Below are positions 36,350 to 63,961 of a stretch of 64,000 nucleotides of DNA, piece after piece. The notes below the pieces were generated by a model. That model was not told where the DNA came from, searched no databases, and worked only from the letters and a program-made list of their open reading frames with translations. Source of the stretch: Thiobacillus sp. (GTDB taxonomy: Bacteria; Pseudomonadota; Gammaproteobacteria; Burkholderiales; Thiobacillaceae). The position numbers and the translations under genes are program-made. The stretch covers positions 162,899-226,898 of the forward strand of contig DAOMCT010000001.1 in the NCBI GenBank assembly GCA_035428045.1, in the 5' to 3' direction. Every line of letters starts with the position of its first letter. The first letter of the stretch is position 1.

Positions 36350-36405
36350 TCGTCAACACACCGTCAGCTGGCGGTGTGTTTGTTTTGGTGGGATAGAGAC
36401 TCTGC

Positions 36406-37938: not shown

Positions 37939-37946
37939 GAGAAACC

Positions 37947-40461: not shown

Positions 40462-40475
40462 CCGATCGGGCGGGT

Positions 40476-40491
40476 TGGCATGTCCCTTGCG
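40476..40491 (+). promoter_or_regulatory. Internal sigma-54 promoter
   Basis: TGGCATGTCCCTTGCG, near-consensus -24/-12 in the 82-bp gap before the ATPase gene. Confidence 0.7.
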
Positions 40492-40543
40492 TAGTTGTAG
40501 ACGGGGCAAGCCAATCCGGCCGCCAACCTCCAACGGATCGTTC

Positions 40544-41578: not shown

Positions 41579-41594
41579 CCCACACGGAATGAAC

Positions 41595-43541: not shown

Positions 43542-43543
43542 AC

Positions 43544-44620: not shown

Positions 44621-44623
44621 CGC

Positions 44624-47387: not shown

Positions 47388-48513
47388 CGTGATTCCGCAC
47401 ATCGTGCATGTCGTTCACCGCTTCGATACCGGCGGTATGGAAAACGGCATGGTCAACCTGTTCAACACCCTGCCGCCCGAGCGCTACCGGCACACGGTGG
47501 TTGCGCTGACCGATTTCAGCGACTTCCGTCGCCGCATCACCGCGCAGCCGGTCGGCTTCTATGCCCTGCATCGCCCGCCGGGCCGAGGCCTCGGCTGGAT
47601 GCTGCGCTTGCGCAGGCTGTTGCGCCAGCTGCAACCCGATCTGGTGCACACGCGCAACCTGGCCGCGCTGGAAGCGCAGCTGGTGGCGGCCGCGTCCGGC
47701 ATCCGCGCCACGGTGCATGGCGAACATGGACGCGATGTGTTCGACCTCTACGGGCAGAATCGCAAGTACAACCTGATTCGGCGTGCTATCCGGCCGTTTG
47801 TCTCGAACTACATTGCGGTGAGCCAGGATCTTGAAAACTGGCTGCGCGAGACCATTCATGTGCCGCCTCGCCGGCTGCACCAGATCTACAACGGCGTCGA
47901 CAGCGTGAAATTCCATCCGCGTGTCGGCGCGCGCCCCGATTTTGCACACCCCAACAGCATCGTGTACGGCTCGGTGGGGCGCATGGTCGAGGTCAAGGAT
48001 TATCCGACCCTGACGCGCGCCTTCATCCAGATGGTGCGCCAGCAGCCCGAGCGCGACGAGCGGGCGCGTCTGGTGCTGGTCGGCGAAGGGCCGGCGCGCG
48101 CCACCTGCCAGACCTTGCTGCAGCAGGCCGGGCTGGCGCATCTGGCCTGGCTGCCGGGCGAGCGCCACGATATTGCAGATATCATGCAGGCCTTCGATGT
48201 GTTCGTCCTGCCATCCAGAAACGAGGGCATCTCCAATACCCTGCTCGAGGCCATGGCGAGCGGGTTGCCGGTGATTGCCACCGCGGTCGGCGGCAATGTC
48301 GAACTGGTGCAGACGGGGGTCAACGGCATGCTGGTGCAGCCGGGCGATGTCTCCGGCATGGCACAGGCCTTGCTGGGGTATCTGGACGCGCCGGCACGGA
48401 TTGCCGAGCAGGGCCATGCCGCGCGGCGGCAGGCCGTTCAGCGCTACAGCATCCCTGCGATGGCCGAGGCGTATGCGGCGGTTTACGACCTGACGCTGCA
48501 GCGCAAGTGCTGA
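47377..48513 (+). CDS. XrtA-system glycosyltransferase (GT4)
   Basis: GGMENG, VHTRN, HGEHGRD, IYNGVD, EGISNTLLEAMA. Confidence 0.92.
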   Translation: MGSDVIPHIVHVVHRFDTGGMENGMVNLFNTLPPERYRHTVVALTDFSDFRRRITAQPVGFYALHRPPGRGLGWMLRLRRLLRQLQPDLVHTRNLAALEAQLVAAASGIRATVHGEHGRDVFDLYGQNRKYNLIRRAIRPFVSNYIAVSQDLENWLRETIHVPPRRLHQIYNGVDSVKFHPRVGARPDFAHPNSIVYGSVGRMVEVKDYPTLTRAFIQMVRQQPERDERARLVLVGEGPARATCQTLLQQAGLAHLAWLPGERHDIADIMQAFDVFVLPSRNEGISNTLLEAMASGLPVIATAVGGNVELVQTGVNGMLVQPGDVSGMAQALLGYLDAPARIAEQGHAARRQAVQRYSIPAMAEAYAAVYDLTLQRKC

Positions 48514-48565
48514 AGCCCCGTCAGACCGCGCGAAAACTTGACACGAACCGAGACCCAATAAGCGT

Positions 48566-50485: not shown

Positions 50486-51699
50486 AGATCCTGCACGTTT
50501 TCGACCATACCCTGCCGCTGCATTCCGGCTATACCTTCCGGAGCGCCGCGATCCTGCGCGAACAGCGCAAGCTGGGCTGGGACACCCATCACCTGTCGGG
50601 CCCCAAGCAGATCAATTGCAGCGTGACCGAAGAAGACGCCGACGGCCTGCATTTTTACCGCACGCCGCAACCGACCGGATTGCTGGCGAAACTGCCGGGC
50701 GCCGATCCGTTTGCGGTGATGGGCGCAATTGAATCCCGCCTGCTTGAGCTGGCCACAACCCTGCGCCCCGATGTGATCCACGCCCATTCGCCGGTGCTCG
50801 ATGCGGTGCCGGCGATTCGCGTCGGCCGCAAGCTGGGGATCCCGGTGGTATACGAAATCCGTGCCTTCTGGGAAGACGCGGCGGTGGATCACGGCTCGAC
50901 CCGCGAAGGCAGCCTGCGCTACAAGCTGACCCGCGCACTGGAAACCTGGGCGGTGAAAAATGTCGATGCGGTCACCGTCATCTGCGATGGCCTGCGGCAG
51001 GATCTGGCGGCGCGCGGCATCGCGCCCGATAAGATCACGGTGATTCCAAACGCGGTCGATATCGACAAATTCGCCGTTGGTGGCCGACCCGACCCCGAGC
51101 TGAAAATGAAGCTGGGTCTCGGCACCAGCCGCGTGCTGGGTTTCATCGGCTCGTTCTATGCCTACGAGGGCCTCGACCTGTTGCTCGATGCGCTGCCGGT
51201 GATTCTCAAACAGATGCCGGATGTAAAGGTGCTGCTGGTGGGCGGCGGGCCGCAGGAAGCTGCACTGAAAAAGCAGGTCATGGCGCTCGACTTGAAAGAG
51301 CGCGTGATTTTTACCGGGCGTGTGCCGCACGGCGACGTGAACCGCTATTACGACCTGATCGATGTGCTGGTGTATGCGCGCCACCCGATGCGCCTGACCG
51401 AGCTGGTGACGCCTTTGAAGCCGCTGGAAGCGATGGCGCAGGAGCGGCTGATGGTGGCGTCGGACGTTGGCGGCCACAAGGAACTGATTGAGGATGGCAA
51501 GACCGGCGTGCTGTTCCGCGCCGGCGAAGCGGACGACCTCGCCGCCAAGGTGGTCGACCTGCTGAAAAACGAGGCAGGCTGGGCGGCGATGAAGCGCAAC
51601 GGCCGTGCCTTCGTCGAATCCGAGCGCAACTGGACCGCCAGCGTGGCGCGTTATCGCGGTGTGTATGGCCGGTTGATTGGGGGCGCGCGCCTTGGCTGA
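50482..51699 (+). CDS. XrtA-system glycosyltransferase (GT4)
   Basis: LPLHSGYTFRS, HAHSPVL, YEIRAFWED, PLKPLEAMA. Confidence 0.92.
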   Translation: MKILHVFDHTLPLHSGYTFRSAAILREQRKLGWDTHHLSGPKQINCSVTEEDADGLHFYRTPQPTGLLAKLPGADPFAVMGAIESRLLELATTLRPDVIHAHSPVLDAVPAIRVGRKLGIPVVYEIRAFWEDAAVDHGSTREGSLRYKLTRALETWAVKNVDAVTVICDGLRQDLAARGIAPDKITVIPNAVDIDKFAVGGRPDPELKMKLGLGTSRVLGFIGSFYAYEGLDLLLDALPVILKQMPDVKVLLVGGGPQEAALKKQVMALDLKERVIFTGRVPHGDVNRYYDLIDVLVYARHPMRLTELVTPLKPLEAMAQERLMVASDVGGHKELIEDGKTGVLFRAGEADDLAAKVVDLLKNEAGWAAMKRNGRAFVESERNWTASVARYRGVYGRLIGGARLG

Positions 51700-52945
51700 G
51701 TCGACGGCGGCGGATCGCATCGACCTCGTCGTATTCAGCGCGCTGTTTCCTAGCGCCGTGCGGCCGGGCGCGGGGCTGTTCATCCGCGAGCGCATGTTCC
51801 GCGTCGCCCGCCAGCGGCCGCTCGCCGTGGTGTCGCCGCAGCCGTGGTTTCCCGGCCAGGCGCTGATCCGCCGCTGGCGTCCGGGCTATCGTCCCGCTGC
51901 CCCCGTGCTGGAAGTGCAGCAGGGCATTCGGGTCTACCACCCGCGCTTTCTGTCTTTTCCCGGCGTACTGCGTGGACTCGACGGCTGGTCGATGGCCCTC
52001 TGCAGCTACTGGCTGGTGCGGCGGCTGAAACAGCAGGGCGCGCGCCTGATCGACGCGCATTTTGCCTATCCCGACGGCGAAGCCGCTACCCGGCTCGGCC
52101 GCTGGCTCGGTCTGCCGGTGACGGTCACGTTGCGTGGCACTGAAGTGCCGCACAGTCGCAATCCGGCGCTGCGCCCCCGTCTGGTGCGTGCCTTGCGCGG
52201 CGCGACGCGGGTGTTTGCCGTATCGGATTCGCTGCGGCGGCTGGCGCTGGAGCTGGGTACGCCGGCCGAGCGCACCGAAGTTGTCGGCAACGGCGTCGAT
52301 GTGGCGCGCTTCCATCCGGTCGACCGGATGGAAGCGCGTGCGCGTTTCAATTTGCCAGCGGATGCGCAGGTGCTGATTTCGGTGGGCGGGCTGGTCGAGC
52401 GCAAGGGCATGCACCGCGTGATCGATTGCCTGCCTGCATTGCTGGCGAACCATCCCGCTTTGCACTACCTCATTGTCGGTGGCGGCAGTCCGGAAGGGGA
52501 CATGCGCCCCGAACTGGAGGCCCAGGTCAGGCGACTGGGCCTGGCCGGGCAGGTGCATTTTCTCGGCGCAGTGGTACCGGACGACCTCAAATGGCCGCTG
52601 TCGGCAGCGGACGTGTTCGTGCTGTCCACGCGGAACGAAGGCTGGGCGAACGTGTTTCTTGAAGCGATGGCGTGCGGCCTGCCGGTCGTCGCCACCGATG
52701 TCGGGGGCAATGCCGAAGTGGTGTGTCGCGCCGAACTCGGCAGCATCGTACCGTTCGGCGATGCAGCCGCCCTGACTACCGCTCTCGACACCGCGCTGGA
52801 CAAGCCATGGGATCGCGCCGCGATCCTCGCGTATGCCGAGGCCAATCAGTGGGACAAGCGGGTGGCGCAGTTGCTGCACGCGTTCGCGTCCATGCTGGCG
52901 AAACCGGATGTCACGCCGGAACCGACGGCAGCGGCCAAATCATGA
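51677..52945 (+). CDS. Glycosyltransferase family 4 (TuaC-like)
   Basis: DAHFAYPDG, TLRGT, GNGVD, EGWANVFLEAMACG. Start uncertain (possibly TTG 51692). Confidence 0.88.
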   Translation: MGARALAESTAADRIDLVVFSALFPSAVRPGAGLFIRERMFRVARQRPLAVVSPQPWFPGQALIRRWRPGYRPAAPVLEVQQGIRVYHPRFLSFPGVLRGLDGWSMALCSYWLVRRLKQQGARLIDAHFAYPDGEAATRLGRWLGLPVTVTLRGTEVPHSRNPALRPRLVRALRGATRVFAVSDSLRRLALELGTPAERTEVVGNGVDVARFHPVDRMEARARFNLPADAQVLISVGGLVERKGMHRVIDCLPALLANHPALHYLIVGGGSPEGDMRPELEAQVRRLGLAGQVHFLGAVVPDDLKWPLSAADVFVLSTRNEGWANVFLEAMACGLPVVATDVGGNAEVVCRAELGSIVPFGDAAALTTALDTALDKPWDRAAILAYAEANQWDKRVAQLLHAFASMLAKPDVTPEPTAAAKS

Positions 52946-53802
52946 CAGCCGCCCCACTCGCTTCGCCCCAACCCGCTACCGGCCACGATGCCCGCAGCCT
53001 GTCGTTGCGTCTGCGGCACGCGCTGTGGCGAAAAGCCAAGGCTTGGCGGCAGCGTGTATTGCCGCGCCCGCTGGCGCAGCATGTGTTCGTTGCCGGCATG
53101 CAGCGTTCCGGCACCAATTTGCTGATGGACGTGCTGGACGCCAGCGCCGCCACCCAGGTGTTTCACGAGACCGATGCGCGCGCGTTCGAGCGCTACGAGA
53201 TGCGCGATGTGGCCGTGATCTGGCAGCTCGCCCGCCAGTGCCCGGCGCCGGTGTTCGTGGTGAAGGCGCTGTGCGAGCTGGACCGTATCAAGTTCCTGAT
53301 GGAGACGTTCACGCCGGCACACACCCTGTGGGTGGTGCGCGACTGGCGCGACAGCGTGAATTCGGCGGTCAAGTCATTTGGCAACTTTGTGCCGCAGTGG
53401 CAGCGCCTGGCCGAAGGCGACGCCGATGACTGGCGCGGACGCGGGATGTCGGCCGCCACCCGCGAACTGCTTGCTGCCCTGTACCACCCGGACGCGAGTG
53501 AAGCCGAAGGCGCAGCCATCATGTGGTTCTACCGCAATGTGCTGTTTTTCGAGCAGCAACTGGCGGCCGATCCGCGCGTGCGCGTGGTGTTTTACGAGGA
53601 TCTGGTGCAGCAGCCGATGCGTGAAGTCGCTGCGGTGTATGCCTTCCTGGGGCTGCCCGGATTCAATGCAGCCAAGGCCCGCCGCATTCACGCACATTCG
53701 GTGAAACGCAGGAGTCCGCCCGACATCGCCCCAGCGGTGACGGCTTTGTGCGACGAATTGCTGGCGCGCTTCGCGGCGTTGCCTGCGCGAAAGCCGGCAT
53801 GA
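52942..53802 (+). CDS. Sulfotransferase family protein
   Basis: 5'-PSB loop VAGMQRSGTNLL; 3'-PB-like VRDWRDSVNS; YEDLV..P. Confidence 0.8.
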   Translation: MTAAPLASPQPATGHDARSLSLRLRHALWRKAKAWRQRVLPRPLAQHVFVAGMQRSGTNLLMDVLDASAATQVFHETDARAFERYEMRDVAVIWQLARQCPAPVFVVKALCELDRIKFLMETFTPAHTLWVVRDWRDSVNSAVKSFGNFVPQWQRLAEGDADDWRGRGMSAATRELLAALYHPDASEAEGAAIMWFYRNVLFFEQQLAADPRVRVVFYEDLVQQPMREVAAVYAFLGLPGFNAAKARRIHAHSVKRRSPPDIAPAVTALCDELLARFAALPARKPA

Positions 53803-55190
53803 GCGTTCCGGTCTGGTTTGCCCGCACGGTGTTTCGCGCGCAGGAAGCCGCGATGAAACGCCCTACCTTTGCAGTGCTGACCGGACTGGAGCGCAGCCAA
53901 TGGCTGTCGCCCGAAGCCATGCAGGTCGAACAGACTCTGCGCCTCAATCAGCTGTTGCACACCGCCTTGCTGCATAGTCCATGGCATGCCGCGCGTCTGC
54001 GCGAGGCGGGACTGGATGGTCGGGTGCGGGCAGGCGCGGCCACGCTGGCGGATCTGACGTTGCTGCCGACCATGAACAAACGCGATGCGCGCGAACACGT
54101 CGAGCAGCTGGTCTGGCGCGGTGTGCCGGGTGGGGTGTTCAAGTACACCACGGGCGGATCCAGCGGCGAGCCGCTGATTTTCTATTTCGGCCGCGCGCGT
54201 CAGGCAGCCGATGCTGCCGGGCGCCTGCGCGCGCGCCGCTGGTGGGGCGTCGAGCCAGGTGCGCGCGAGGTCTATCTGTGGGGCGCGCCGGTGGAACTGA
54301 ACAAGACCGACCGCATCAAGACGCTGCGCGACCGTCTGGTCAACCAGCTGTTGCTCAACGCCTTCGAGATGTCGCCCGCACGGATGGATGAGTATCTGGG
54401 CGCACTTCAAGTCTGGAATCCACTGGCGATTTATGGCTATGCCAGCAGCTTGGCCTTGCTGGCTAGCCACGCTGTGGCGCGTGGTGTCGGACTGAAACTG
54501 CCCGCGTTGCGCGTGGTCAGCGCCACCGGCGAGCCCTTGTTCCCGCACCAGCGTGAGTTGATTGAGCGCGTGTTCGGGGTGCCGGTGTCCGTGGAATATG
54601 GTGCGCGCGATGCCGGGTTGATGGCACTGGAGTCGCCCGACGGCGTGCTGCTGCAAATGAGCGAGACCCACCTGATCGAAGTGCTCGACGCCGCCGGGCA
54701 GCCGGTGGCGGACGGCGAGGAGGGTGAAGCGGTGGTCACCAGTCTGGTGTCTGAAGCGCAGCCCTTCATCCGCTATCGCACCGGCGACGTCGTGCGGCGT
54801 TCGACCCGAAATGACCCCAGCGGCCGCGCCCTTGCGGTGCTCGATGCCGTGGTGGGGCGGCAGACCGACTTCATCGTCGCCGCCGATGGCCGCGTCATGC
54901 ACGCGCTGGCGGTGATTTACGTGCTGCGCGCGATTGCCGGCGTCGACCAGTTCAAGTTGATCCAGCACGCGCTGGATCGCCTGGAAGTGCAGGTGGTCCC
55001 GGATGCGCGCTGGAACGAGGCCGCACGCGCCGCCGTGATCGAAGGCCTGCGCGCGCGGCTGGGACCGGCGCTGGCGGTGGAGTTGAAACTACTGGATGCG
55101 ATCGCCCCCGAAGCCTCGGGCAAACACCGTTATGTCGTCAGCCACGTGCCGCTTCCCGGCGCGCTGGCGCAGAAAGCTGAAGCCGCATGA
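53799..55190 (+). CDS. Phenylacetate-CoA ligase/CapK-like adenylate-forming enzyme
   Basis: YTTGGSSGEP, EYGARDAG, PFIRYRTGD, GRQTD, SGKHR. Confidence 0.85.
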   Translation: MSVPVWFARTVFRAQEAAMKRPTFAVLTGLERSQWLSPEAMQVEQTLRLNQLLHTALLHSPWHAARLREAGLDGRVRAGAATLADLTLLPTMNKRDAREHVEQLVWRGVPGGVFKYTTGGSSGEPLIFYFGRARQAADAAGRLRARRWWGVEPGAREVYLWGAPVELNKTDRIKTLRDRLVNQLLLNAFEMSPARMDEYLGALQVWNPLAIYGYASSLALLASHAVARGVGLKLPALRVVSATGEPLFPHQRELIERVFGVPVSVEYGARDAGLMALESPDGVLLQMSETHLIEVLDAAGQPVADGEEGEAVVTSLVSEAQPFIRYRTGDVVRRSTRNDPSGRALAVLDAVVGRQTDFIVAADGRVMHALAVIYVLRAIAGVDQFKLIQHALDRLEVQVVPDARWNEAARAAVIEGLRARLGPALAVELKLLDAIAPEASGKHRYVVSHVPLPGALAQKAEAA

Positions 55191-56482
55191 GAGACATCTT
55201 CATTACCGCCGTCATCTTCGGCCTGCTGCCGTTTGTCTTTAAACGCCCGTGGCTGGGCATCCTGCTCTGGTCGTGGCTGGGTTACATGAGCCCGCACCGG
55301 CTGGCGTGGGGCTTTGCCTACAGCCTGCCGTTTTCGATGATCGTCGGTCTGGTGACCATCGTTGCCTTTATGGCGTCTAAGGAAAAGAAAGAGATGCCGT
55401 GGACGCGCGAGACCATTCTCCTGCTGGTCTTTGTAGGCTGGATGCTGTTCACCACCTTCTTTGCGTTTTATCCCGACCTGGCCTGGATGCAATGGGACAA
55501 GGTATGGAAAATCCAGCTCATGGTGTTCCTGACGGCGCTCATCATCACCGACCGCCATAAACTGCATTGGCTCATCTGGGTGATTGCCCTGTCATTCGGG
55601 TTCTATGGGGTCAAAGGCGGAATCTTCACCATCATCAACGGTGGCGCCTACCGGGTGCAGGGGCCTCCAGGCACCTTTATTGGGGGCAACAACGAAATGG
55701 CGCTGGCGTTGGTAATGACGATTCCGCTGATCCGTTATCTGCACCTTCAGGAAACTCGTCATTTGTTCAAAATGGGTCTTGCCAGCGCCATGGTGCTGAC
55801 CGGGGTGGCGGCGATCGGCAGCCAGTCGCGCGGTGGCCTGGTGGCAATGGTGGCGATGGGCCTGTTCCTGTGGCTGAAGAGCCGCAACAAGATTGTCACG
55901 GGGTTATACATGGCGATCGCGGTTTTGATCATGGCCTCGGTGATGCCGCAGGCCTGGTACGACCGCATGAACACGATCAATACCTACGAGCAGGATCAGT
56001 CGACCCAGGGACGCTTCAATGCCTGGCATACCGCATTCAATCTGGCGAAAGACCGCATCACGGGCGGTGGCTTCGAGACGTTTCAGGGGCCCACCTTCCG
56101 CCAATATGCGCCTGACCCGTGGAACGTGCGCGACGTGCACAGCATCTATTTCGAGCAGATGGGCGAGCATGGCTTCATCGGCCTGGCGTTATTCCTGCTG
56201 CTGGGCCTGCTGGCCTGGATCCGCGCGCAGCAGATCATCAACCGATGCAAGAACGATCCGGAGCGGAAATGGGCGGCCGATCTGGCGGCGATGATCCAGG
56301 TCAGCCTCATCGGCTTTGCCGCAGGCGGCACCTTTCTTGGCATGAGCTACTTTGACCTGCCCTATCACCTGATGGTCATTCTGGTGCTGGTCGCCAAATT
56401 CACCGGGCTGCTGGAGAAGCAGGTGGTTCCGCTTGCACGCTTTGGCAATGTGCCCGACGCCGCCCCCCGGCCATTTATTTAA
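55187..56482 (+). CDS. Putative O-glycosylation ligase, exosortase A-associated (O-antigen ligase-like)
   Basis: Multi-TM; MSPHRLAW, SRGG, periplasmic loop ending HSIYF...GEHG. Confidence 0.88.
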   Translation: MRDIFITAVIFGLLPFVFKRPWLGILLWSWLGYMSPHRLAWGFAYSLPFSMIVGLVTIVAFMASKEKKEMPWTRETILLLVFVGWMLFTTFFAFYPDLAWMQWDKVWKIQLMVFLTALIITDRHKLHWLIWVIALSFGFYGVKGGIFTIINGGAYRVQGPPGTFIGGNNEMALALVMTIPLIRYLHLQETRHLFKMGLASAMVLTGVAAIGSQSRGGLVAMVAMGLFLWLKSRNKIVTGLYMAIAVLIMASVMPQAWYDRMNTINTYEQDQSTQGRFNAWHTAFNLAKDRITGGGFETFQGPTFRQYAPDPWNVRDVHSIYFEQMGEHGFIGLALFLLLGLLAWIRAQQIINRCKNDPERKWAADLAAMIQVSLIGFAAGGTFLGMSYFDLPYHLMVILVLVAKFTGLLEKQVVPLARFGNVPDAAPRPFI

Positions 56483-56494
56483 TAGGCACGCATC

Positions 56495-57484
56495 GTGGCT
56501 GGATTGAGTTTGCCGCCCGGCTTGGGGCGATCGTTCTGGTTTGCCGTACTGCTACTGCTCGGGATGGAATTCGCGCTCCACAGCGATGCCGTGCTGCTAC
56601 GCTATCGTTCGGTGTTCGCGGTGGGGCGCGCGGTAGACAAGCTGCAACTCGTCGAAACCCGGCCGCCGCACGTGCTCTTCATTGGCAACAGCCGGACCGA
56701 CAATGGCATCGACCCGCGCACGGTCAGTCGTGTTTTGAGTCAGCCTGCGGCCACCAGTTTCAACCTCGGGTTGCCGGGCACCAATGTGCTGACCTGGCAC
56801 GGCATGGTCGAACGACTGAACGCCCGGGGCTTGCTGGGTTCCCGGGGCATCCATACGGTGGTGCTGGGGCTGGATGAAAGCGCGCTGCAGGACGACAACT
56901 CGCTGGGTTATGTGAGTTTTTTTGCCGACCGCGCCGCACTATGGCAAGCCGGGCGTTATCAGGACTGGCTGGGCAGCGTGGTTCGCCTGTGGTCGTACAG
57001 CGGCAACCTGCGGCAACTGCGCGAGCCGGAAAAGGGGCTGCGTTTTCTTGCCGCGAGCACCCGACAGATCGACCCGGTGGGCGGTGCGGCGGCGGCGTAC
57101 CTGGGCTACCGCGCGGGTTTCGGTGCGGCACAGGACCAGGCACAGGTCGCGCAGCAGGAACGCGCGGCCCACCAGCCGCCCGCCCCGGTCGCCCTCGATT
57201 TTTTGTGGAGCATGCTAGACCGACTGCAGGGGCAGGGGGTGCGCGTCTTTGTCACCATCCCGCCGCTGCGTGACCGCGAGTCGGCCTTCTACGATTCCGG
57301 CGCAAGCGCTGCGCCCTACCGCGTCCTGCTTGCCCGGCTGCAACAGCACGGGGTGACGGTGTTGCCCGCGCCGACCGGCTTTGTGCCGGCAGACTTCATC
57401 AACGCCGGCCATCTGCGTGATGCAGGAGCGCAACGCTACAGCGCGGATGTGGGGCGACTATTGCGCGCGTCAGGGGTGAAATAA
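56495..57484 (+). CDS. SGNH/AlgJ-like periplasmic partner of the MBOAT protein
   Basis: N-terminal TM, block I IGNSR, NLGLPG, C-terminal FINAGHL; directly upstream of the MBOAT gene. Confidence 0.6.
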   Translation: MAGLSLPPGLGRSFWFAVLLLLGMEFALHSDAVLLRYRSVFAVGRAVDKLQLVETRPPHVLFIGNSRTDNGIDPRTVSRVLSQPAATSFNLGLPGTNVLTWHGMVERLNARGLLGSRGIHTVVLGLDESALQDDNSLGYVSFFADRAALWQAGRYQDWLGSVVRLWSYSGNLRQLREPEKGLRFLAASTRQIDPVGGAAAAYLGYRAGFGAAQDQAQVAQQERAAHQPPAPVALDFLWSMLDRLQGQGVRVFVTIPPLRDRESAFYDSGASAAPYRVLLARLQQHGVTVLPAPTGFVPADFINAGHLRDAGAQRYSADVGRLLRASGVK

Positions 57485-57487
57485 GTC

Positions 57488-58921
57488 ATGGTTTTCAGTT
57501 CGCCTTCCTTCCTGCTGTTCTTTGCGGTGCTGCTGCTTTTTTACGCGGGTGCGCGCACCTACCGTGAACGCGCGGCCGTGATTCTGGTGGGTAGTCTGAT
57601 TTTTTATGCGTCGTGGAAACCGGCCTACCTGATCCTGCTGGCGGTGTCGGTCAGTTTCAACTATCTGATCTATTCGGGGCTGACGGCGACCCGCAGCAAA
57701 CGCCTGCTGACTTTCGGGCTGGTGCTGAACCTGGGCTTTCTCGGCATCGTCAAATATCTCGGCATGGCGCTGGAAAGCCTGCTGGGTTTGAGCGCCTGGC
57801 TCGACATGCCGCTGTTCGGTGCGCCGCCTGCTTGGAGCCACTGGGCGCTGCCGCTGGGCATCAGCTTCTACACCTTCCACATGCTGTCGGTCATGATCGA
57901 CGTCTATCGCGGCGAGTGGACGCACCGCATTTCCTTCCGCGCCTGGTGGCTGTATGTAACCTTCTTCCCGCACATGATTGCCGGCCCCATCCTGCGCGCC
58001 TCCGAACTCGTCGAGCAGCTGGAAAACCTGCAGCCGCTCAAGGCCGCCCAACTCAAGCTGGGCGCGCTGATTTTCATGGCGGGGCTGATCAAGAAGGTGC
58101 TGTTTGCCGACAACCTGGCGCCGCTGGCCGATGAGCTGTTCAGCCGTCCCGAGGCGCTGGATTTTTATACCGCGTGGCTGGCGGCCACCGTATTCGCACT
58201 GCAGATCTATTTCGATTTTTCCGGCTACAGCGAAATGGCCATCGGCCTCGCGCTGGCCTTTGGCGTGGTGCTGCCGCGCAATTTTCTGTACCCCTACACC
58301 AGTCGCAGCGTGCGCGAATTCTGGCAGCGCTGGCATATCACGCTGTCGCGCTGGCTGCGCGACTACCTCTACATTTCGTTGGGCGGCAACCGGCGCGGCG
58401 TGCCGCGCAACTTTGCCAATCTGATGATCACCATGCTGCTGGGCGGCCTGTGGCATGGCGCCGCCTGGACCTTCGTGTTCTGGGGCTTATTGCACGGCAG
58501 CTATCTGGTGCTGCACCGCATGCTGCTCGACGGTTACACGCGGCTGGGCGTGGTGAACGGCTCGACGGTGTCACGCGCCCTGTCCTGGCTGGGCTGGCCG
58601 CTGACGCTGGCGCTGGTGTGGGTGACCTGGGTGTTCTTTCGTGCGCCTTCGTTTCATGACGCCTGGATCATTACTGCGGCGATGCTGGGCCTGGCCGATG
58701 CGATGAACGCCCCGTATGTGCGCACCTACGTGCAGGCTCTGGTATGGGGCAGTCTGCTGCTGGTGCTGCTGGAACCCCGGATCGAGCGCGGCCTGACGCA
58801 GGGTTTACAGGCCTGGGGGCGGTTGCACTTTGCGCTGCGCGGCAGTGCCTACGCCGGGCTGGTGCTGGCGGTCATCGTGCTGGGAGGAAGCAGCCAGAAG
58901 TTCATCTACTTCGACTTCTAG
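57488..58921 (+). CDS. MBOAT family polysaccharide O-acyltransferase (AlgI/PatA-like)
   Basis: LPLGISFYTF, FFPHMIAGPI, YFDFSGYS, EFWQRWHITLS, GLWHGAAWTF, FIYFDF. Confidence 0.93.
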   Translation: MVFSSPSFLLFFAVLLLFYAGARTYRERAAVILVGSLIFYASWKPAYLILLAVSVSFNYLIYSGLTATRSKRLLTFGLVLNLGFLGIVKYLGMALESLLGLSAWLDMPLFGAPPAWSHWALPLGISFYTFHMLSVMIDVYRGEWTHRISFRAWWLYVTFFPHMIAGPILRASELVEQLENLQPLKAAQLKLGALIFMAGLIKKVLFADNLAPLADELFSRPEALDFYTAWLAATVFALQIYFDFSGYSEMAIGLALAFGVVLPRNFLYPYTSRSVREFWQRWHITLSRWLRDYLYISLGGNRRGVPRNFANLMITMLLGGLWHGAAWTFVFWGLLHGSYLVLHRMLLDGYTRLGVVNGSTVSRALSWLGWPLTLALVWVTWVFFRAPSFHDAWIITAAMLGLADAMNAPYVRTYVQALVWGSLLLVLLEPRIERGLTQGLQAWGRLHFALRGSAYAGLVLAVIVLGGSSQKFIYFDF

Positions 58922-58956
58922 GTGAACCGTATGGCGTCTGACGCGCTGTGTGTGGC

Positions 58957-60783
58957 TCAGTGATCGTTCGCCTGCAGCCACTGCTCCAGCATCATCACCA
59001 CCCAGATCATCACGCCGTAATAACTGGCATGCTGGCCGCGCTGCATGGCCAGCATGTGGTCGAGGTAGGCAGGCTGGATCCAGCCGCGCTGTTTGAAGCT
59101 GGCGAGGCTGTCGCCGACAAGTTCGCCGAGCGGCGCGTATTGCATGCTCCACACGCCGAACGGCAGGCCGAAGCCGTGCTTGCTCTTGTTGATGATTTTT
59201 TCCGGCAACAGGTCGGACAGCGCTTCCTTGAAAAACCAGCGCAACTTCTGGCCGCGCACCTGGTAATCCACCGGCAGATGGTTGGCGAAGGCGACCATGC
59301 GGTCGTCGAGCAGCGGGTAGCGCACCTCGATACCCGCTGCCTCGGTCATGCTGTTGACCTTGCGCAGATCGCTGTCGGCCAGAGTGAACTTCATGTCCAG
59401 ATGCATCATGCGGTTTATGTAGTGATCCGAACTGGTGCGTTCATAGACTTCGATCAGCGCGGCATCGGCAGTCGATGGATCCACCGCGTGGATGAAATCC
59501 GTGGTCAGCAGCTGGTCGAGCGGGGTGCGATGCAGGAAATTGTAGCTTTCCAGCCGTAGCGGCAAGCCGATGTTGGCCTGCTGCACGTAGCTCTTGAGTT
59601 TGGACAGCGGGAAGCGATTCGACAGCCCCGGCAGGTAGGCAAGCGGCTCGACCACGTTCTGGCGCAGCGCAACAGGCAGGCGGAAGTAGCTTTCGAACAG
59701 TTTCTGTTTGGCATAACGCGCATTGCCGCCGAAGATTTCGTCGCCGCCGTCGCCCGCCAGCATGCGCTCGAACCCGGCGGCGCGCGCGGCCTGGGCGCAA
59801 AAGTAGGTGGGCACGGCGGAAGCGTTGCCGAACGGTTCGTCGTAGGCCTGGGCAATCACCGGAACGGCGGTGACGATGTCGGCGGGCTTCAGGTAGTACT
59901 CGTGCGGGCGGCTGCCGAAGCGTTCGACGGCGCAGCGCGCGTATTCCATTTCGTCGAAGCCGGCGGCGTCAAAGCCGATGGAAAAGGTATCGACCGGCGC
60001 GCCGCGCGCAGCGGTCAGTGCACCGACGATGGTGGAGCTATCGGTGCCGCCGGAAAGGAATGCGGCGGTAGCCGGGCCATCGGCATCGCGCACTGACTGA
60101 TCGAGCACGCTGCGGAAATGTTCGCGGTGGGTGCGGAAGGGGGCGTCGACCGGAGTGTAATCGGCCTGCCAGTAATAGCGCGATTGAATTTGCCCGTTTT
60201 TCAGGGTGACCATCTGTCCGGGTAGCAGTTTGCGCACGCCCTGATAGAGGCTGCGCGGCGCGGGAATGGAATGGAAGTACAGGTAATCGTAAATCGCCTG
60301 CGGGTCGATGACGCGGCCGACGGCGGGATGCGCGGCCACGCTCTGGATGCTGCTGCCAAACACCAGCTGGCCGCCATGCTTGGCATAGCACAGGCGTTCG
60401 GCGCCGATGCGGTCGAGCACCAGGCAGGCCTGTTGCTTGTGGGGTTCGAGCACGGCAAACGCAAAATTGCCGCGCATCAGGGTCGGCAGTTTTTCGCCGT
60501 GGCGCAGCCAGCCGTGCGCAACGGCCACCGCCGGGTGTCGGTCCTGAGCCAGCGCGGCCAGTTCGGCGTCAAGAAAAACCGGGCGTCCAGTCAGGCTGGC
60601 GGCGAGGCCATTTTCGACATGGAGGTCGGCCTTGCCAAAGCGCGAACACGCAGCCACGCCGAATGCGGGGCTGCTGTGTTCTTTCAGGGGACTATCCGGG
60701 GGAAGACGGGCGGCCATCCCCATCTGTTTGATCAAATCCTGATGCGCGCCGTGGTCGCCCAGCCAGCCAAATATGCCATCCAT
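58957..60783 (-). CDS. Asparagine synthase-related protein lacking the N-terminal Cys
   Basis: Starts MDGIFG rather than MCGIxG; synthetase motifs LSGGTDSS, GDGGDE, VRYPLLD, KHGF retained. Confidence 0.85.
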   Translation of the reverse strand: MDGIFGWLGDHGAHQDLIKQMGMAARLPPDSPLKEHSSPAFGVAACSRFGKADLHVENGLAASLTGRPVFLDAELAALAQDRHPAVAVAHGWLRHGEKLPTLMRGNFAFAVLEPHKQQACLVLDRIGAERLCYAKHGGQLVFGSSIQSVAAHPAVGRVIDPQAIYDYLYFHSIPAPRSLYQGVRKLLPGQMVTLKNGQIQSRYYWQADYTPVDAPFRTHREHFRSVLDQSVRDADGPATAAFLSGGTDSSTIVGALTAARGAPVDTFSIGFDAAGFDEMEYARCAVERFGSRPHEYYLKPADIVTAVPVIAQAYDEPFGNASAVPTYFCAQAARAAGFERMLAGDGGDEIFGGNARYAKQKLFESYFRLPVALRQNVVEPLAYLPGLSNRFPLSKLKSYVQQANIGLPLRLESYNFLHRTPLDQLLTTDFIHAVDPSTADAALIEVYERTSSDHYINRMMHLDMKFTLADSDLRKVNSMTEAAGIEVRYPLLDDRMVAFANHLPVDYQVRGQKLRWFFKEALSDLLPEKIINKSKHGFGLPFGVWSMQYAPLGELVGDSLASFKQRGWIQPAYLDHMLAMQRGQHASYYGVMIWVVMMLEQWLQANDH

Positions 60784-60843
60784 GGTGTGTTGTGTCGGAG
60801 TGATGCGGGATAATGCCCGCCAATATATAACGAGCCGGTGATC

Positions 60844-60859
60844 AGGCACGAATTCTGCT
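60844..60859 (+). promoter_or_regulatory. Candidate sigma-54 promoter for the sulfotransferase-deacetylase-GT unit
   Basis: AGGCACGAATTCTGCT (GGCAC, GG-N10-GC) in the divergent intergenic region. Confidence 0.5.
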
Positions 60860-60924
60860 CATCGATTTACGGATTCCATCCCTGTGCAGCCGTGCCGGTT
60901 CGCGAACAATGAAAGCCCACGAGT

Positions 60925-61842
60925 TTGAATGAATTTTTCGACAAAGTAGCCAAAACGCTGGCCTACCACGCGCAACGACTGCTGCGCGGCGTGCGCGGCG
61001 TGCGCTGGAACCTGTCGCGCCGGCCTGCCCGTCGCCCGATCATCGTGGTGGGCTGTTCGCGTGCGGGTACCACGCTGGTCTACAAAATGCTGTCCGAATC
61101 GCACGAAATCGGCAGCCTGCAGCGTGAAACCCACGACTACTGGACCGACCTGCATCCGCTGTCGGATAAAAACTGGGACACCCATGCACTGGATGCGGCC
61201 GATGTCAGCCCGGCGGACCGCGACACCGTCAGCCGCTATTTTTACCGCTGGACGGGGAAGCATCGCTGGGTCGACAAGAACAACCAGAACGGCCTGTGCG
61301 TCCCCTATTTGACCACCCTGTTCCCGGACGCGGTACTCGTGTTCGTCAAGCGCAGCCCGGGCGACAACCTCAATTCCCTGATCGAAGGCTGGCGCAAGCC
61401 CGACGAATTCGCGACCTGGTCCAAGGATTTGCCGGCGACGGTGGCGGTGGAAAACGGCCAGTTGAAGGAATGGTGTTTTTTTCTTGCCAATGGCTGGCGT
61501 GACTATGTGAACGCACCGGTTGAGGACGTGGCCGCATTTCAATATCGGGCGATCAATCAGGCGATTCTTGAGGCCCGTGCGACGTTGCCCGGGGCGCAGT
61601 GGGTCGAGGTGTTTTACGAAGACTTCCTGCGTGACCCCGCCACCACCTTCCGCCAGGTGTTCGAAGGCTGTGGCCTGAAGTTTGATGCCGCGCTGCAGGC
61701 GCGTTGCGCCGAGGTGCTCGATACGCCGTTCAATGCGTTTTCCGAAATCCGTCTCGACAAATGGAAGGACGGCCGCAACCGTGAAAAAATCGAGCGCGTG
61801 TTGCCGCAGGTGGCGGACGTGGCCGGGCGGATGGGCTATTGA
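60925..61842 (+). CDS. Sulfotransferase family protein
   Basis: 5'-PSB loop VVGCSRAGTTL, HEIGSLQRET, VDKN, YEDFL.DP. TTG start uncertain. Confidence 0.8.
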   Translation: MNEFFDKVAKTLAYHAQRLLRGVRGVRWNLSRRPARRPIIVVGCSRAGTTLVYKMLSESHEIGSLQRETHDYWTDLHPLSDKNWDTHALDAADVSPADRDTVSRYFYRWTGKHRWVDKNNQNGLCVPYLTTLFPDAVLVFVKRSPGDNLNSLIEGWRKPDEFATWSKDLPATVAVENGQLKEWCFFLANGWRDYVNAPVEDVAAFQYRAINQAILEARATLPGAQWVEVFYEDFLRDPATTFRQVFEGCGLKFDAALQARCAEVLDTPFNAFSEIRLDKWKDGRNREKIERVLPQVADVAGRMGY

Positions 61843-63035
61843 TGAGCGTGCCGGTCCTGCTGCTCGCGCTGTGCCTGCTGTTGTGGGGCGGCGTGTTGCT
61901 GGCGTTCGCCGCGCCACTGGTGGCGCGCTGGCGCGAGCCGGTGCTGCGGTGCCCGGTGCTCATCATTGAAAGCGATGACTGGGGCGCGGGATCGCTGGCC
62001 CAGGCTGCGGCGCTGGTTCGTTTGTCGGGATTGCTGAAAGGGGTGCGCGATTCGCATGGCCGGGCGGCGGTGATGACGCTGGGGGTGGTGCTGGAGGTGC
62101 CGGACGGCGCGCGCATCGCGGCGAGCGGGGGCGAGGTGTATCACGCGTTGCCGCTGGCCGATGCGCGTTTCGACGCTGTGCGCCAGGCGATGCTGGCGGG
62201 GATTCGGGCGGGGGTGTTCGTTCCGCAATTGCATGGCCAGTGCCACTACTGGCCGGAGGCGGTGATGGCGGTCGCGCAAACCGATGGCGCGGTGCGCGAT
62301 TGGCTCTGCGCGGCCGAGCCTGCGGCAACCGAAGACCTGCCGTCGTACCTGCAAAGTCGCTGGATCGATGCGGGCAGCCTGCCGTCGCGCGCCTTGCCGG
62401 TTGACGCGATCCAGCGCGCCGTCGCTGCCGAAGCGCGGGCGTATCAAGCCGTGTTTGGCGAGCAGCCGCAGGTGGCCGTCGCCACCACTTTTGTCTGGAA
62501 CGAGGCGGTTGAAGCGGCCTGGCGCGAGGCGGGCGTGAACGTCATCATCACCCCGGGTCGTCGCGCGACCTGCCGCAATGCAAGCGGGCAGCCGGCATGT
62601 GTCGATGCACGGATGTTGACAGGCGAGCGTTCAGGTGCCGGACAAATCTATCTGGTGCGCGACGTGTATTTTGAACCGGCGCTGGGCCACGTTCCGCAAC
62701 GCGTGGTGGATGGCCTGCAATTGCGCACCTTGCAGGGGCGTGGCTGCCTGGTCGAAACCCATCGCTTCAACTTCCTGCGCGCACCTGAAGCGAGCTGCGT
62801 GGCGCTTGAGTCTGCCTTGCGCCAGGCGCTGGCCGCCTGTCCCGCATTGCGTTTCACCTCGCCGCTGGAACTGGCAAACGCGCTTCAGGCACGCGATGCG
62901 GAATGGGTTGAAACCCGGCTGCAGCCCCGCTTGCGGGCATGGCGTGCGCGGCTCGACGAGATCCCGCGCTTTCGCCGCATCGCGCAACTCAGCGGGCTGG
63001 CGCTGCCGCTGCGTCTGCTGGGAGGCGCAGCATGA
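61842..63035 (+). CDS. Membrane-anchored glycoside hydrolase/deacetylase-superfamily protein
   Basis: N-terminal TM; IESDDWG acidic pair; PQLHGQCH His pair; VETHRFNF. Confidence 0.6.
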   Translation: MSVPVLLLALCLLLWGGVLLAFAAPLVARWREPVLRCPVLIIESDDWGAGSLAQAAALVRLSGLLKGVRDSHGRAAVMTLGVVLEVPDGARIAASGGEVYHALPLADARFDAVRQAMLAGIRAGVFVPQLHGQCHYWPEAVMAVAQTDGAVRDWLCAAEPAATEDLPSYLQSRWIDAGSLPSRALPVDAIQRAVAAEARAYQAVFGEQPQVAVATTFVWNEAVEAAWREAGVNVIITPGRRATCRNASGQPACVDARMLTGERSGAGQIYLVRDVYFEPALGHVPQRVVDGLQLRTLQGRGCLVETHRFNFLRAPEASCVALESALRQALAACPALRFTSPLELANALQARDAEWVETRLQPRLRAWRARLDEIPRFRRIAQLSGLALPLRLLGGAA

Positions 63036-63961
63036 AGCCGCGTTTTTCCGTGGTCATTCCCGCTTACAACAGCGCGGCCACGCTGGTGCGCGCGATCGAG
63101 TCGGTGCGGGCCCAAAGCTGGCCCGCGCATGAAATCATCGTGGTGGATGACGGCTCGCGTGACGCCACCGCCGAGGTGGCGCGCCAGTTTGGCGACGCTG
63201 TGCGCCTGATCCAGCAGGCCAACAGCGGGGTGTCGGTGGCGCGCAACGCCGGGGCGGCAGCGGCCAGCGGCAACTGGCTGGCGTTTCTCGATGCGGATGA
63301 CTGGTATGCGCCGGATCGCATCAAGCTGCACGCCGAATGGATTGCCGAAGACCCCGGCCTGGATTTTCTGACCGGCGATTACGAATACCGCGATGCGGCG
63401 AACACGTTGCTCGGCACTTCGATGGCGCAGCACGCATCGGGACAGGCGATGCTGGCGAAATGCGGTGGCGCGCAGCGCGGGGTGATGGACACCCCCGCCG
63501 AGATCGCCGCCTTCGTCGCCGACCACTTTGGCGACACCCATACCCTGTCAGTTCCGCGTGCGCGTTTTATCCAGCTCGGCGGCTATCCCACCGGTTTCAA
63601 GGTGTGCGAAGACGTGCATTTTCTGACCCGGCTGGTGGCGCAGAGCCGCCGCATCGGCGTGGTGTGCCAGAGCCTGGGCGTGTATGCCATTCACGGCGGC
63701 AGCGCCACGCGCCGCGACCCGGTGGCGGCGCAGCGCGAAAACGTACGTACCCTGAATGATCTGGTGCGGCTGGCGACGCGGTTTCCGCTGCCGGTTCGCG
63801 AGGGGGTGGCTGCCCGCATGCAAAGCGCACGCTACAACCTGGCGTGCGCCCTGAGCAAAAGCGGCCAGCGCGGCGCAGCGGTTCGCGCCGTGTTGCCGTC
63901 GCTGGCCGCCGCCCCTGGCTGGACCAGCGTGCGCCAGGTGTTGTCGATGTTGAAAGGATGA
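63032..63961 (+). CDS. Glycosyltransferase family 2
   Basis: SVVIPAYN, VVDDGSRD, NSGVSVARN, FLDADD, CED. Confidence 0.93.
   Translation: MKPRFSVVIPAYNSAATLVRAIESVRAQSWPAHEIIVVDDGSRDATAEVARQFGDAVRLIQQANSGVSVARNAGAAAASGNWLAFLDADDWYAPDRIKLHAEWIAEDPGLDFLTGDYEYRDAANTLLGTSMAQHASGQAMLAKCGGAQRGVMDTPAEIAAFVADHFGDTHTLSVPRARFIQLGGYPTGFKVCEDVHFLTRLVAQSRRIGVVCQSLGVYAIHGGSATRRDPVAAQRENVRTLNDLVRLATRFPLPVREGVAARMQSARYNLACALSKSGQRGAAVRAVLPSLAAAPGWTSVRQVLSMLKG

Follow-up and report, generated by a model that had tools for sequence, protein, structure and literature searches.

Gene content of the tailoring region in the XrtA locus

The window analysed here is a 64-kb stretch of Thiobacillus DNA. Its positions 52942-63035 hold the tailoring half of a Wzx/Wzy-type XrtA/PEP-CTERM EPS locus of about 43 kb, which runs on for about 15 kb past the end of the window and encodes the Wzx flippase at its far end (Table 1). 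All genes that had been listed for this region in an earlier note, made from the sequence alone, were recovered by profile, motif and fold evidence. The XrtA/PEP-CTERM EPS system (Haft et al. 2006, PMC1569441; TIGR03109 and associates) is represented by all of its core families, each scoring above its curated cut-off, and AsnB1 of the core, which begins with MCGI, reaches 1130 bits with TIGR03108. In an NCBIfam search, no model matched the sulfotransferases 1 and 2 (ST1, ST2), the ESDDWG deacetylase or the DltD-like protein. Compared with the XrtA system of PMC1569441, these four proteins form a conserved accessory module in the present locus, and the published description contains no word starting with 'sulfo'. 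The accessory genes had been thought to come after the core, but one gene among them, that of the TIGR03097 'O-ligase', belongs to the XrtA core families, and core and accessory genes are thus interleaved.

Table 1. Features of the EPS locus within the window (positions refer to the window).
Feature	Position	Strand	Evidence
XrtA export and chain-length genes: TIGR03027 exporter, TIGR03007 chain-length determinant, TIGR03018 tyrosine kinase, TIGR03016 outer-membrane protein	35723..40461	+	NCBIfam, all above curated cut-offs
XrtA core, part 1: TIGR03015 ATPase, WecB, TIGR03006 deacetylase, TIGR03019 FemAB-like, stp1	within 40475..52945	+	
XrtA core, part 2: XrtA-EpsI fusion, stp2, AsnB1, stp3, further GT4	within 40475..52945	+	
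Sulfotransferase 1 (ST1), 286 aa, cytoplasmic	52942..53802	+	PF13469 65.5 bits; PF00685 39.3 bits
PaaK/CapK-like adenylate-forming ligase	53799..55190	+	Sub-threshold NCBIfam PaaK/F390; PDB AjiA1 6wuq 8e-21, PaaK-like ligase 6siw
TIGR03097 Wzy_C/DUF5935 protein of the XrtA system (polymerase or 'O-ligase')	55187..56482	+	615 bits against a cut-off of 188; Pfam Wzy_C and DUF5935
DltD-like SGNH-fold protein, 329 aa, membrane-anchored, MBOAT partner	56495..57484	+	AF2 pLDDT 78; Foldseek
MBOAT membrane O-acyltransferase (DltB/AlgI type)	57488..58921	+	PF03062 111 bits; TIGR04091 153 bits (below cut-off); PDB DltB 8jem/6bug 1e-24
AsnB2, asparagine-synthase-type ATP-dependent amidoligase	58957..60783	-	PF00733 264 bits; TIGR03108 300 bits (below cut-off of 817)
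Sulfotransferase 2 (ST2), 305 aa, cytoplasmic	60925..61842	+	PF13469 80.6 bits
ESDDWG-family CE4-fold deacetylase (or deformylase), 398 aa, N-terminal membrane anchor	61839..63035	+	AF2 pLDDT 97.3; Foldseek
GT2 glycosyltransferase, opening a GT run that extends past the window	62939..63961	+	PF00535 120 bits

An orthologue of the adenylate-forming ligase, Tbd_0295, has been listed as a PEP-CTERM-correlated 'CapK' (PMC1569441). The ligase is also kept where the MBOAT pair is missing from the genome, and it is therefore not a dedicated partner of that pair. The DltD-like protein has no match in Pfam, and Foldseek ranked the DltD structures 6pfx, 6o93 and 7dxm (E 4.5e-5 to 5e-4) ahead of GDSL esterases and PatB; the residues Ser66 and His306 do not vary, and Asn303 occupies the position of the Asp in SGNH enzymes. 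A DltB-like MBOAT is thus accompanied by a membrane-anchored SGNH protein of the DltD fold, as in the Dlt (DltA-D) and alginate AlgI/AlgJ systems. Unlike in the Dlt systems, there is no carrier protein on the present contig and no DltA-type ligase. The inverted AsnB2 gene is co-conserved with ST2, and its product begins with MDGIFG, the glutaminase Cys1 being replaced by Asp and the SGGTDSS motif being kept.

Sulfotransferases and PAPS supply

Four sulfotransferase Pfam families have no match in the 3.53-Mb genome other than ST1 and ST2, and the presence of both in one locus is more than would be expected by chance. The PAPS-binding motifs are intact in both proteins (5'-PSB loop GMQRSGTN and 3'-PB VRDWRDSVNS in ST1; GCSRAGTT and KRSPGDNLNS in ST2). 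ST1 occurs in 17 of 36 genomes of the genus, and ST2 in 31 of 36 with 76-94% identity and intact motifs; ST2 orthologues with 59-69% identity sit in XrtA loci of other families.

Acceptor specificity is not readable from membership of PF13469, which also matches protein-tyrosine sulfotransferases (TPST). One or both enzymes might modify proteins rather than polysaccharide; PEP-CTERM cargo, for instance, might be sulfated on tyrosines before it is exported, much as RaxST sulfates a tyrosine of RaxX. The XrtA locus does serve a protein-sorting system, the only PDB sequence matches of ST1 are very weak ones to TPST (E 0.04-0.08, not significant), and the 3'-PB motif of ST1 resembles its TPST counterpart. 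However, the likeness of ST1 to TPST is restricted to the cofactor motifs, the start of ST1 overlaps the stop of the preceding GT4 gene, no PEP-CTERM cargo gene is present in the tailoring region (52942-63035), and ST2 sits among, and travels with, glycosyltransferases and a carbohydrate-type deacetylase. We regard protein sulfation as quite improbable. The best PDB relatives of ST2 are the mycobacterial Stf9 (2z6v, 2e-8), Stf1 and the CurM sulfotransferase domain, and LpsS and the mycobacterial Stf enzymes sulfate envelope glycoconjugates such as LPS or glycolipid. That the two enzymes act on such a target, their position in an EPS locus being incidental, or that they are inactive remnants, nevertheless seems very improbable: several families share the position within XrtA loci, the genus-wide identity of ST2 with its intact motifs speaks for selection, and the association of PF13469 with APS kinase described below argues for sulfotransferase activity.

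The earlier note had left the source of PAPS to be located in the genome, and it was found there. The only strong APS kinase of the genome (1056 bits) is a full-length orthologue of the two-domain T. denitrificans enzyme of PDB 3CR8, encoded on a contig other than that of the EPS locus; the true Sat is encoded on another contig. The 3CR8 enzyme (Gay, Segel & Fisher 2009) was crystallised and is reported to be an active APS kinase, and the accessible text of the accounts deals with the structure and with a sulfurylase-like domain that is inactive and names no consumer of PAPS (PMC3734648; bioRxiv 10.64898/2026.04.02.716029). PF01507 (CysH/CysD) was absent from the present genome and from five further genomes with ST2, of which two are closed, with 14 of 14 control genomes positive, and sulfation is therefore the only visible use of PAPS. 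A survey of XrtA loci for sulfation genes covered 301 genomes of the order, in which APS kinase was present in 76 of the 80 genomes with PF13469, compared to 48 of the 221 without, and in each of the 18 genomes whose XrtA locus has a linked sulfotransferase. A sulfotransferase lay within 40 kb of XrtA, often at 11-13 kb, in 18 of 96 XrtA loci against a roughly estimated chance expectation of about 2, these counts spanning related genomes and thus not representing independent events.

The ESDDWG deacetylase and its association with ST2

Foldseek placed ArnD (8t0j) on top for the ESDDWG protein, followed by CE4 enzymes and, at rank 32, NDST1 (8chs), so that the initial designation 'deacetylase-like' was right at the level of the fold. 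Even ArnD reaches TM-scores of only 0.41/0.57, at a sequence identity of 14%. ArnD is the deformylase of undecaprenyl-phosphate-linked Ara4FN. The residues D46, D47, H132, H136 and H308 are invariant in the ESDDWG family. From the charge pattern at its anchor (positive-inside rule only), the protein is probably oriented N-out/C-in and faces the cytoplasm; both it, by this prediction, and ArnD would then be membrane-associated proteins acting at the cytoplasmic face. The deacetylase gene starts before ST2 has ended, an overlap that suggests translational coupling.

The module of ST2, deacetylase, GT2 and GT4 is conserved in 31 of 36 Thiobacillus species, and at least six families carry it in their XrtA loci. 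Of 80 deacetylase-bearing loci, 75 hold ST2 together with the deacetylase, GT2 and GT4 and the other five end at a contig edge, and the GT2 gene at 62939..63961 is co-conserved with ST2 and the deacetylase. The locus is syntenic with that of a closed Thiobacillus genome of 2,909,809 bp, and ST1 and the MBOAT pair vary between genomes. This genus-wide and wider conservation means that the ST2/deacetylase/GT block is not a foreign island. Nor is the region a compositional island, since its GC content (0.625-0.67) equals that of its flanks; the term 'island' used before is misleading.

A CE4-type deacetylase fold and a PAPS-dependent sulfotransferase also occur together in NDST1, NDST being a single fused Golgi enzyme that works on the finished heparosan chain. 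By analogy, the ESDDWG deacetylase might free the amine of a lipid-linked hexosamine for N-sulfation by ST2, the two forming a split bacterial counterpart of NDST. We consider this heparan-like logic unlikely. It is topologically possible, as the predicted orientation puts the deacetylase on the cytoplasmic side, where ST2 is also predicted to act, and it accords with the gene overlap, with the joint operon in 75 of 75 informative loci and in six families, with the NDST1 deacetylase domain among the fold matches, and with N-linked sulfate suggested by a dye/nitrous-acid assay in granular-sludge EPS (PMC10483923). Yet in three genomes the DltD-like/MBOAT pair is inserted between ST2 and the deacetylase, neither of two distant family members examined had a sulfotransferase nearby, and there was no fusion of the two activities among the best 150 family members (lengths 104-484 aa). 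Moreover, the amine could just as well stay unmodified, or the CapK-like ligase or the FemAB-like enzyme could re-acylate it. To our knowledge, O-sulfation is the rule for bacterial glycan sulfotransferases. In contrast to NDST1, the present locus encodes two separate proteins with a distant fold match, and N-sulfation is only a candidate. The heparan logic of the earlier note is therefore unsupported, and it is not required; its term 'glycosaminoglycan-like' finds no support in the gene content, and wecB indicates sugars of the ManNAc type.

A putative sulfated EPS and its relation to known systems

The combination of sulfotransferases, a deacetylase and enzymes for amidation and O-acylation in one XrtA locus makes a sulfated, decorated exopolymer very probable. 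The genes required for sulfation, amidation and O-acylation of a polymer that contains amino sugars are in the locus, which bears out the capacity proposed earlier, and this Thiobacillus likely makes a sulfated EPS. With a probability of roughly 0.65, the locus as a whole directs the synthesis of a sulfated, partly de-N-acetylated, amidated and O-acylated heteropolysaccharide by the Wzx/Wzy-XrtA route. Our literature search turned up neither a report of Thiobacillus EPS with sulfate esters nor a published description of such a locus.

Sulfotransferase genes also lie inside the synechan (xss) EPS cluster of the cyanobacterium Synechocystis PCC 6803, the product of which was shown to be sulfated; the abstract of that paper calls cyanobacteria unique among bacteria in producing sulfated EPS (PMC8205485), and we saw no sign of an exosortase link for the cluster. 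The likeness to the present locus is one of gene content. For Vibrio sp. KMM 8419 the structure of a sulfated capsule was solved, and sulfotransferase and PAPS genes in the cluster were called a 'hallmark' of sulfated polysaccharide synthesis (PMC11641403). That cluster relies on ABC-transporter (Kps) export and includes cysNDC, whereas here the route is Wzx/Wzy-XrtA and the APS kinase is encoded on another contig.

In the pathway that we propose, repeat units, which would contain ManNAc-type amino sugars given the presence of WecB, would be assembled on undecaprenyl-PP at the cytoplasmic face by the many GT2 and GT4 enzymes. The lipid-linked unit would receive sulfate from PAPS via ST2 and, in about half of the Thiobacillus species, also via ST1, and the membrane-anchored ESDDWG protein would remove the N-acyl group of an amino sugar in an ArnD-like manner. 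AsnB1 and the Cys1-less AsnB2 may amidate carboxylates, and the CapK-like ligase may activate a carboxylate. After flipping by Wzx, the MBOAT and its DltD-fold partner would O-acylate the polymer in the periplasm, most simply by acetylation, and the TIGR03097 protein would polymerise or ligate the polymer, to be secreted by the XrtA export genes. That such a polymer serves as a sulfate sink, as once suggested, is implausible, because the sulfate excreted by a sulfur oxidiser would far exceed what EPS could bind. The PAPS would come from the Sat-like/APS-kinase protein, with APS, which arises as an intermediate when the cell itself oxidises sulfite, as substrate. The EPS locus thus supplies candidate consumers for the PAPS made by this long-puzzling APS kinase.

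Layout of the XrtA locus and its sulfotransferases

The XrtA EPS locus begins at window position 35723, and its core families all score above the curated NCBIfam cut-offs. Exosortase A (TIGR03109) reaches 368 bits against a cut-off of 208, with an EpsI domain at 121 bits, and the associated equivalogs TIGR03015, 03006, 03019, 03087, 03088, 04063, 03108, 03097, 03027, 03007, 03018 and 03016 likewise exceed theirs. The genes that the earlier note had listed for region 52942-63035 were found there, and its coordinates for this island proved accurate. Since most junctions between the island genes overlap by a few bases or span less than 15 bp, we read these genes as operons; the only one in the opposite orientation is AsnB2, which is divergent from ST2. 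The GC content of the island is the same as that of its flanks and its synteny is kept across the genus, which rules out a horizontally acquired island. The window stems from a Thiobacillus genome, and the database relatives closest to the island genes carry that name too.

Features of the XrtA locus and of related loci (G000, the genome that contains the window, with contigs C1 and C3; L007, L008 and L030, fetched loci; G020, closed Thiobacillus genome; G234 and G274, genomes of other families)
Feature	Location	Strand	Description
Export and chain-length core genes	window, from 35723		TIGR03027 exporter, TIGR03007 chain-length determinant, TIGR03018 tyrosine kinase, TIGR03016 outer-membrane protein
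Further core genes			TIGR03015 ATPase, WecB, TIGR03006 deacetylase, TIGR03019 FemAB-like, stp1, XrtA-EpsI fusion, stp2, TIGR03108 amidotransferase (AsnB1), stp3, further GT4
ST1	window 52942-53802	+	PF13469 sulfotransferase
CapK-like ligase	window 53799-55190	+	PaaK-like ligase
TIGR03097			Wzy_C protein
DltD-like protein	window 56495-57484	+	329-aa hypothetical
MBOAT	window 57488-58921	+	
AsnB2	window 58957-60783	-	inverted AsnB paralogue
ST2	window 60925-61842	+	PF13469 sulfotransferase
ESDDWG deacetylase	window 61839-63035	+	398-aa hypothetical
GT2			last gene in the island order
Beyond-window stretch			more GT2/GT4 genes, TPR protein, GT2-TM-'Sulfatase' fusion, third CE4 deacetylase, MOP-family Wzx flippase
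GT2-'Sulfatase' fusion	G000:C1:230815-233913 (window 67917-71015; L007:4815-7913)	-	1032 aa: GT2 domain, multi-span membrane region, Pfam 'Sulfatase' domain
Third CE4 deacetylase	within L007:10774-13055	-	PgaB/HfsH-like, 266 aa, adjoins Wzx flippase
APS-kinase gene	within G000:C3:27819-31404 (L008:7819-11404)		
Additional G020 gene	L030:6690-7767		~360 aa, between CapK-like ligase and TIGR03097
APS kinase beside sulfotransferase	G274:C6:124510-138936		APS kinase (cysC) 124510, ST 125951, XrtA 138160
APS kinase beside sulfotransferase	G234:C3:67926-96943		

Both sulfotransferases score well above the PF13469 gathering cut-off of 27 (ST1, 65.5 bits; ST2, 80.6 bits), and a profile search of the 99.9%-complete genome found no other match to PF13469, PF00685, PF03567 or PF17784. 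ST1, aligned to TPST2, carries the 5'-phosphosulfate loop GMQRSGTN and the 3'-phosphate motif VRDWRDSVNS; the corresponding motifs of ST2, aligned to Stf9, are GCSRAGTT and KRSPGDNLNS. As neither a signal peptide nor a membrane segment was found in ST1 or ST2, both should act in the cytoplasm, the compartment of PAPS.

AsnB2 begins with MDGIFG (Cys1 replaced by Asp) and combines a degenerate glutaminase domain with intact synthetase motifs. It is co-conserved with ST2 across families at 48-53% identity, which is why we regard it as a predicted functional amidoligase-type partner and not as a decaying copy.

The locus extends about 15 kb past the end of the window. With the third CE4 deacetylase at its distal end it totals three deacetylase-type proteins. 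In the GT2-'Sulfatase' fusion, the position of the formylglycine motif C/S-x-P-x-R is aligned with T-A-P-S-L, and no CxPxR occurs in the domain. The Thr (TAPS) at the nucleophile position and the missing CxPxR rule out a role of this fusion in a sulfate cycle, and the 'Sulfatase' domain is therefore not evidence for sulfate ester turnover. Judged by its residues, this GT2-TM-alkaline-phosphatase-superfamily fusion is more probably an LtaS/EptA/BcsG-like phospho-substituent transferase than a sulfatase. Its co-conservation with the ST2 module extends to MAG loci labelled Nitrotoga and to a divergent locus in Thiobacillus (genome G001).

Folds of the two hypothetical proteins

Sequence searches against PDB and Pfam gave nothing usable for the 398-aa and 329-aa proteins. 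The family of the former is uncurated and comprises 609 clusters at 50% identity; an alignment of 53 members revealed invariant residues E44-S45-D46-D47-W48, H132, H136 and H308. Its AlphaFold2 model (pLDDT 97.3) was placed by Foldseek in the CE4/NodB deacetylase superfamily, with ArnD as the top match, followed by CE4 esterases, HP0310, PdaC, PgaB/IcaB, ChbG and GH57 enzymes; human NDST1 ranked 32nd. The CE4 metal triad is reproduced by D47 together with H132-x3-H136. The designation "deacetylase-like" in the earlier note was right at the level of the fold. Throughout the family, the net charge is zero or negative ahead of the N-terminal helix and positive behind it; under the positive-inside rule, this predicts a catalytic domain at the cytoplasmic face. 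The family is rare, being present in 2 of 400 other genomes in a phylum-wide sample, and one of two distant members is broken by a stop codon.

A CE4-type fold with invariant D46/D47, H132-x3-H136 and H308 is what a bacterial counterpart of NDST would need, namely a metal-dependent deacetylase fold with an Asp-His-His site. In such a scheme, ST2 and the cytoplasm-facing ESDDWG deacetylase would form a split NDST that produces N-sulfated hexosamine on undecaprenyl-linked units, and the sole purpose of the APS kinase in sulfur oxidisers would be to feed this sulfation of the matrix, using APS drawn from energy metabolism. Deacetylase and sulfotransferase are indeed coupled in the XrtA-type clade. 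However, this coupling is not obligate family-wide, as the two distant members examined have no sulfotransferase nearby, and no fusion of the two activities was found among the top 150 family members. The "heparan logic" of deacetylation followed by N-sulfation thus stands as a possibility, but an optional one, and we consider the NDST-like scheme as a whole unlikely. If true, it would for the first time give the N-sulfated, heparan-like groups of environmental biofilm polymers a genetic route. Nothing in the genes indicates a "glycosaminoglycan-like" polymer, and a role as a "sulfate sink" would be quantitatively implausible on stoichiometric grounds.

For the 329-aa protein, the model (pLDDT 78) matched DltD best (E 4.5e-5 to 5e-4), followed by GDSL/SGNH esterases and PatB, which bears out the previous label "SGNH-like" as a description of the fold. 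Ser66 and His306 are invariant, and Asn303 occupies the position of the Asp in SGNH enzymes. The resemblance to DltD exists at the fold level only and needs structure prediction to be seen, the DltD match in a profile search being non-significant (E 0.56). The neighbouring MBOAT protein scores 153 bits against a TIGR04091 cut-off of 375. Whereas the Dlt D-alanylation pathway has a DltC-type carrier and a DltA-type ligase, no PP-binding carrier protein was matched on contig C1 and the ligase of the island is PaaK-like. A complete relay of the Dlt kind, with ligase, MBOAT and SGNH protein, is unsupported, because there is no carrier protein near the locus and the ligase is kept where the MBOAT pair is absent.

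Conservation in Thiobacillus and in other XrtA loci

ST2 is present in 31 of 36 Thiobacillus species genomes at 76-94% identity, and most genomes lacking it are incomplete; ST1 is present in 17 of the 36. Synteny with the closed 2,909,809-bp genome G020 covers the ligase, TIGR03097, AsnB2, ST2, the deacetylase, the glycosyltransferases and the GT2-'Sulfatase' fusion. This genome encodes ST2, the deacetylase and an APS kinase, and lacks ST1 and the DltD-like/MBOAT pair. These absences and an additional gene with no counterpart in the window indicate variation of the accessory region at the level of single genes within the genus.

For loci holding the deacetylase, species-representative genomes were scanned, which yielded 338 relatives, and gene neighbours were counted on the best 80 loci. 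An ST2 homologue accompanied by the deacetylase, GT2 and GT4 was found in 75 of these best 80 loci, the remaining five being cut by a contig end within 2 kb. Among the best 80 are records under the labels Sulfuriferula, Sulfuricella, Gallionellaceae, Nitrotoga and Tenderia and a Methylococcales MAG; the distance between the module and xrtA is about 13 kb in Sulfuriferula sp. GW1. XrtA loci were also surveyed across the order in 301 evenly sampled, near-complete genomes, of which 96 have XrtA above the cut-off. A PF13469 gene lies within 40 kb of XrtA on the same contig in 18 of these 96 genomes (10 families), often at 11-13 kb, where chance would lead one to expect, very roughly, about two. 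Examination of 16 stretches from 15 of the 18 genomes revealed the ST2/deacetylase/GT2/GT4 module in six families and different PF13469 members in the others. Three genomes have the DltD-like/MBOAT pair between ST2 and the deacetylase.

PAPS supply and a putative pathway for a sulfated matrix

The earlier note had proposed to locate PAPS synthesis, and both an APS kinase and Sat were found in the genome. The one strong APS kinase, a full-length orthologue (1056 bits) of the Thiobacillus denitrificans protein in PDB 3CR8, is fused to an ATP-sulfurylase-like domain, which is inactive in the T. denitrificans protein according to citing papers (PMC3734648; bioRxiv 10.64898/2026.04.02.716029). A true Sat is encoded separately. 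For a sulfur oxidiser that has Sat, APS is a plausible intermediate of sulfite oxidation. Searches of six ST2-bearing genomes, of which two are closed (G000, G020, G262, G251, G101 and G115), detected no PAPS_reduct family member (CysH or CysD), while 14 of 14 control genomes matched. These six chemolithotrophs appear to lack assimilatory sulfate reduction by the PAPS_reduct route while retaining APS kinase. Since no CysH or CysD was found, PAPS would have no visible assimilatory use here, and the predicted sulfotransferases of the island are its only recognisable consumers. Of the 80 genomes with PF13469 in the sample of 301, 76 have an APS kinase, against 48 of the 221 without, and so do 18 of 18 with XrtA-linked sulfotransferases; these counts are descriptive, as genomes that are related cannot count as independent.

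Two genes that flank the APS-kinase gene stand out: a convergent one for a putative PEP-CTERM protein with the C-terminus VPEPASLALLGIGMAGLVAMRRRKTA (one protein, spotted by eye) and, upstream, one whose 347-aa product matches a DHH domain weakly (E 0.0012) and is possibly an NrnA-type pAp phosphatase. Other families have XrtA loci in which a gene for APS kinase, either a stand-alone cysC or a cysNC fusion, directly adjoins a PF13469 sulfotransferase within 14-29 kb of xrtA.

Read most economically, the locus makes a Wzx/Wzy-dependent heteropolysaccharide, and the lipid-linked repeat unit would be modified at the cytoplasmic face and then flipped. The analysis shows what the genes are, their motifs and folds, the PAPS supply and the co-occurrence; we infer in which order the steps follow and which acceptors and donors take part. 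At the cytoplasmic face, ST2, and in some species also ST1, would sulfate the repeat unit, and the ESDDWG enzyme would de-N-acylate an amino sugar. AsnB1 and AsnB2, the latter without the glutaminase Cys1, could amidate carboxylates, and the CapK-like ligase, a type of protein described as PEP-CTERM-correlated by Haft et al. (PMC1569441), may act on a carboxylate. After flipping, the MBOAT/DltD-fold pair would O-acylate the polymer, which TIGR03097 would then polymerise or ligate before export.

Precedents for the principle are synechan of Synechocystis (PMC8205485) and the capsule of Vibrio sp. KMM 8419 (PMC11641403). Outside cyanobacteria, sulfated exopolysaccharides are considered rare among bacteria (PMC8205485). 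We found no literature linking sulfotransferases or sulfated polymers to exosortase/PEP-CTERM loci or to Thiobacillus EPS; no word beginning with "sulfo" occurs in the XrtA/PEP-CTERM description of Haft et al. (PMC1569441), and neither the two sulfotransferases nor the ESDDWG family have a model in NCBIfam. New here are three things: a defined ST2/deacetylase/GT module is conserved across the genus, its frequency in XrtA loci is quantified, and a link is made to APS kinase in genomes without CysH.

In granular sludge, sulfated, "GAG-like" polymers have been measured, and the authors call the responsible pathways and sulfotransferases unknown (PMC10483923). The locus supplies concrete candidate genes for sulfated biofilm polymers. 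A genus that can be cultivated conserves these genes, and XrtA loci of several lineages contain them as well, among them MAGs with the labels Sulfuriferula, Sulfuricella, Gallionellaceae and Nitrotoga; the question of sulfated polymers is therefore now directly testable. The crystallised APS kinase of T. denitrificans is offered a physiological role in an organism without CysH. For biofilms that oxidise sulfur, iron or nitrite, a matrix that is sulfated and strongly anionic would be of consequence in the binding of metals and minerals, in flocculation and in the formation of granules.
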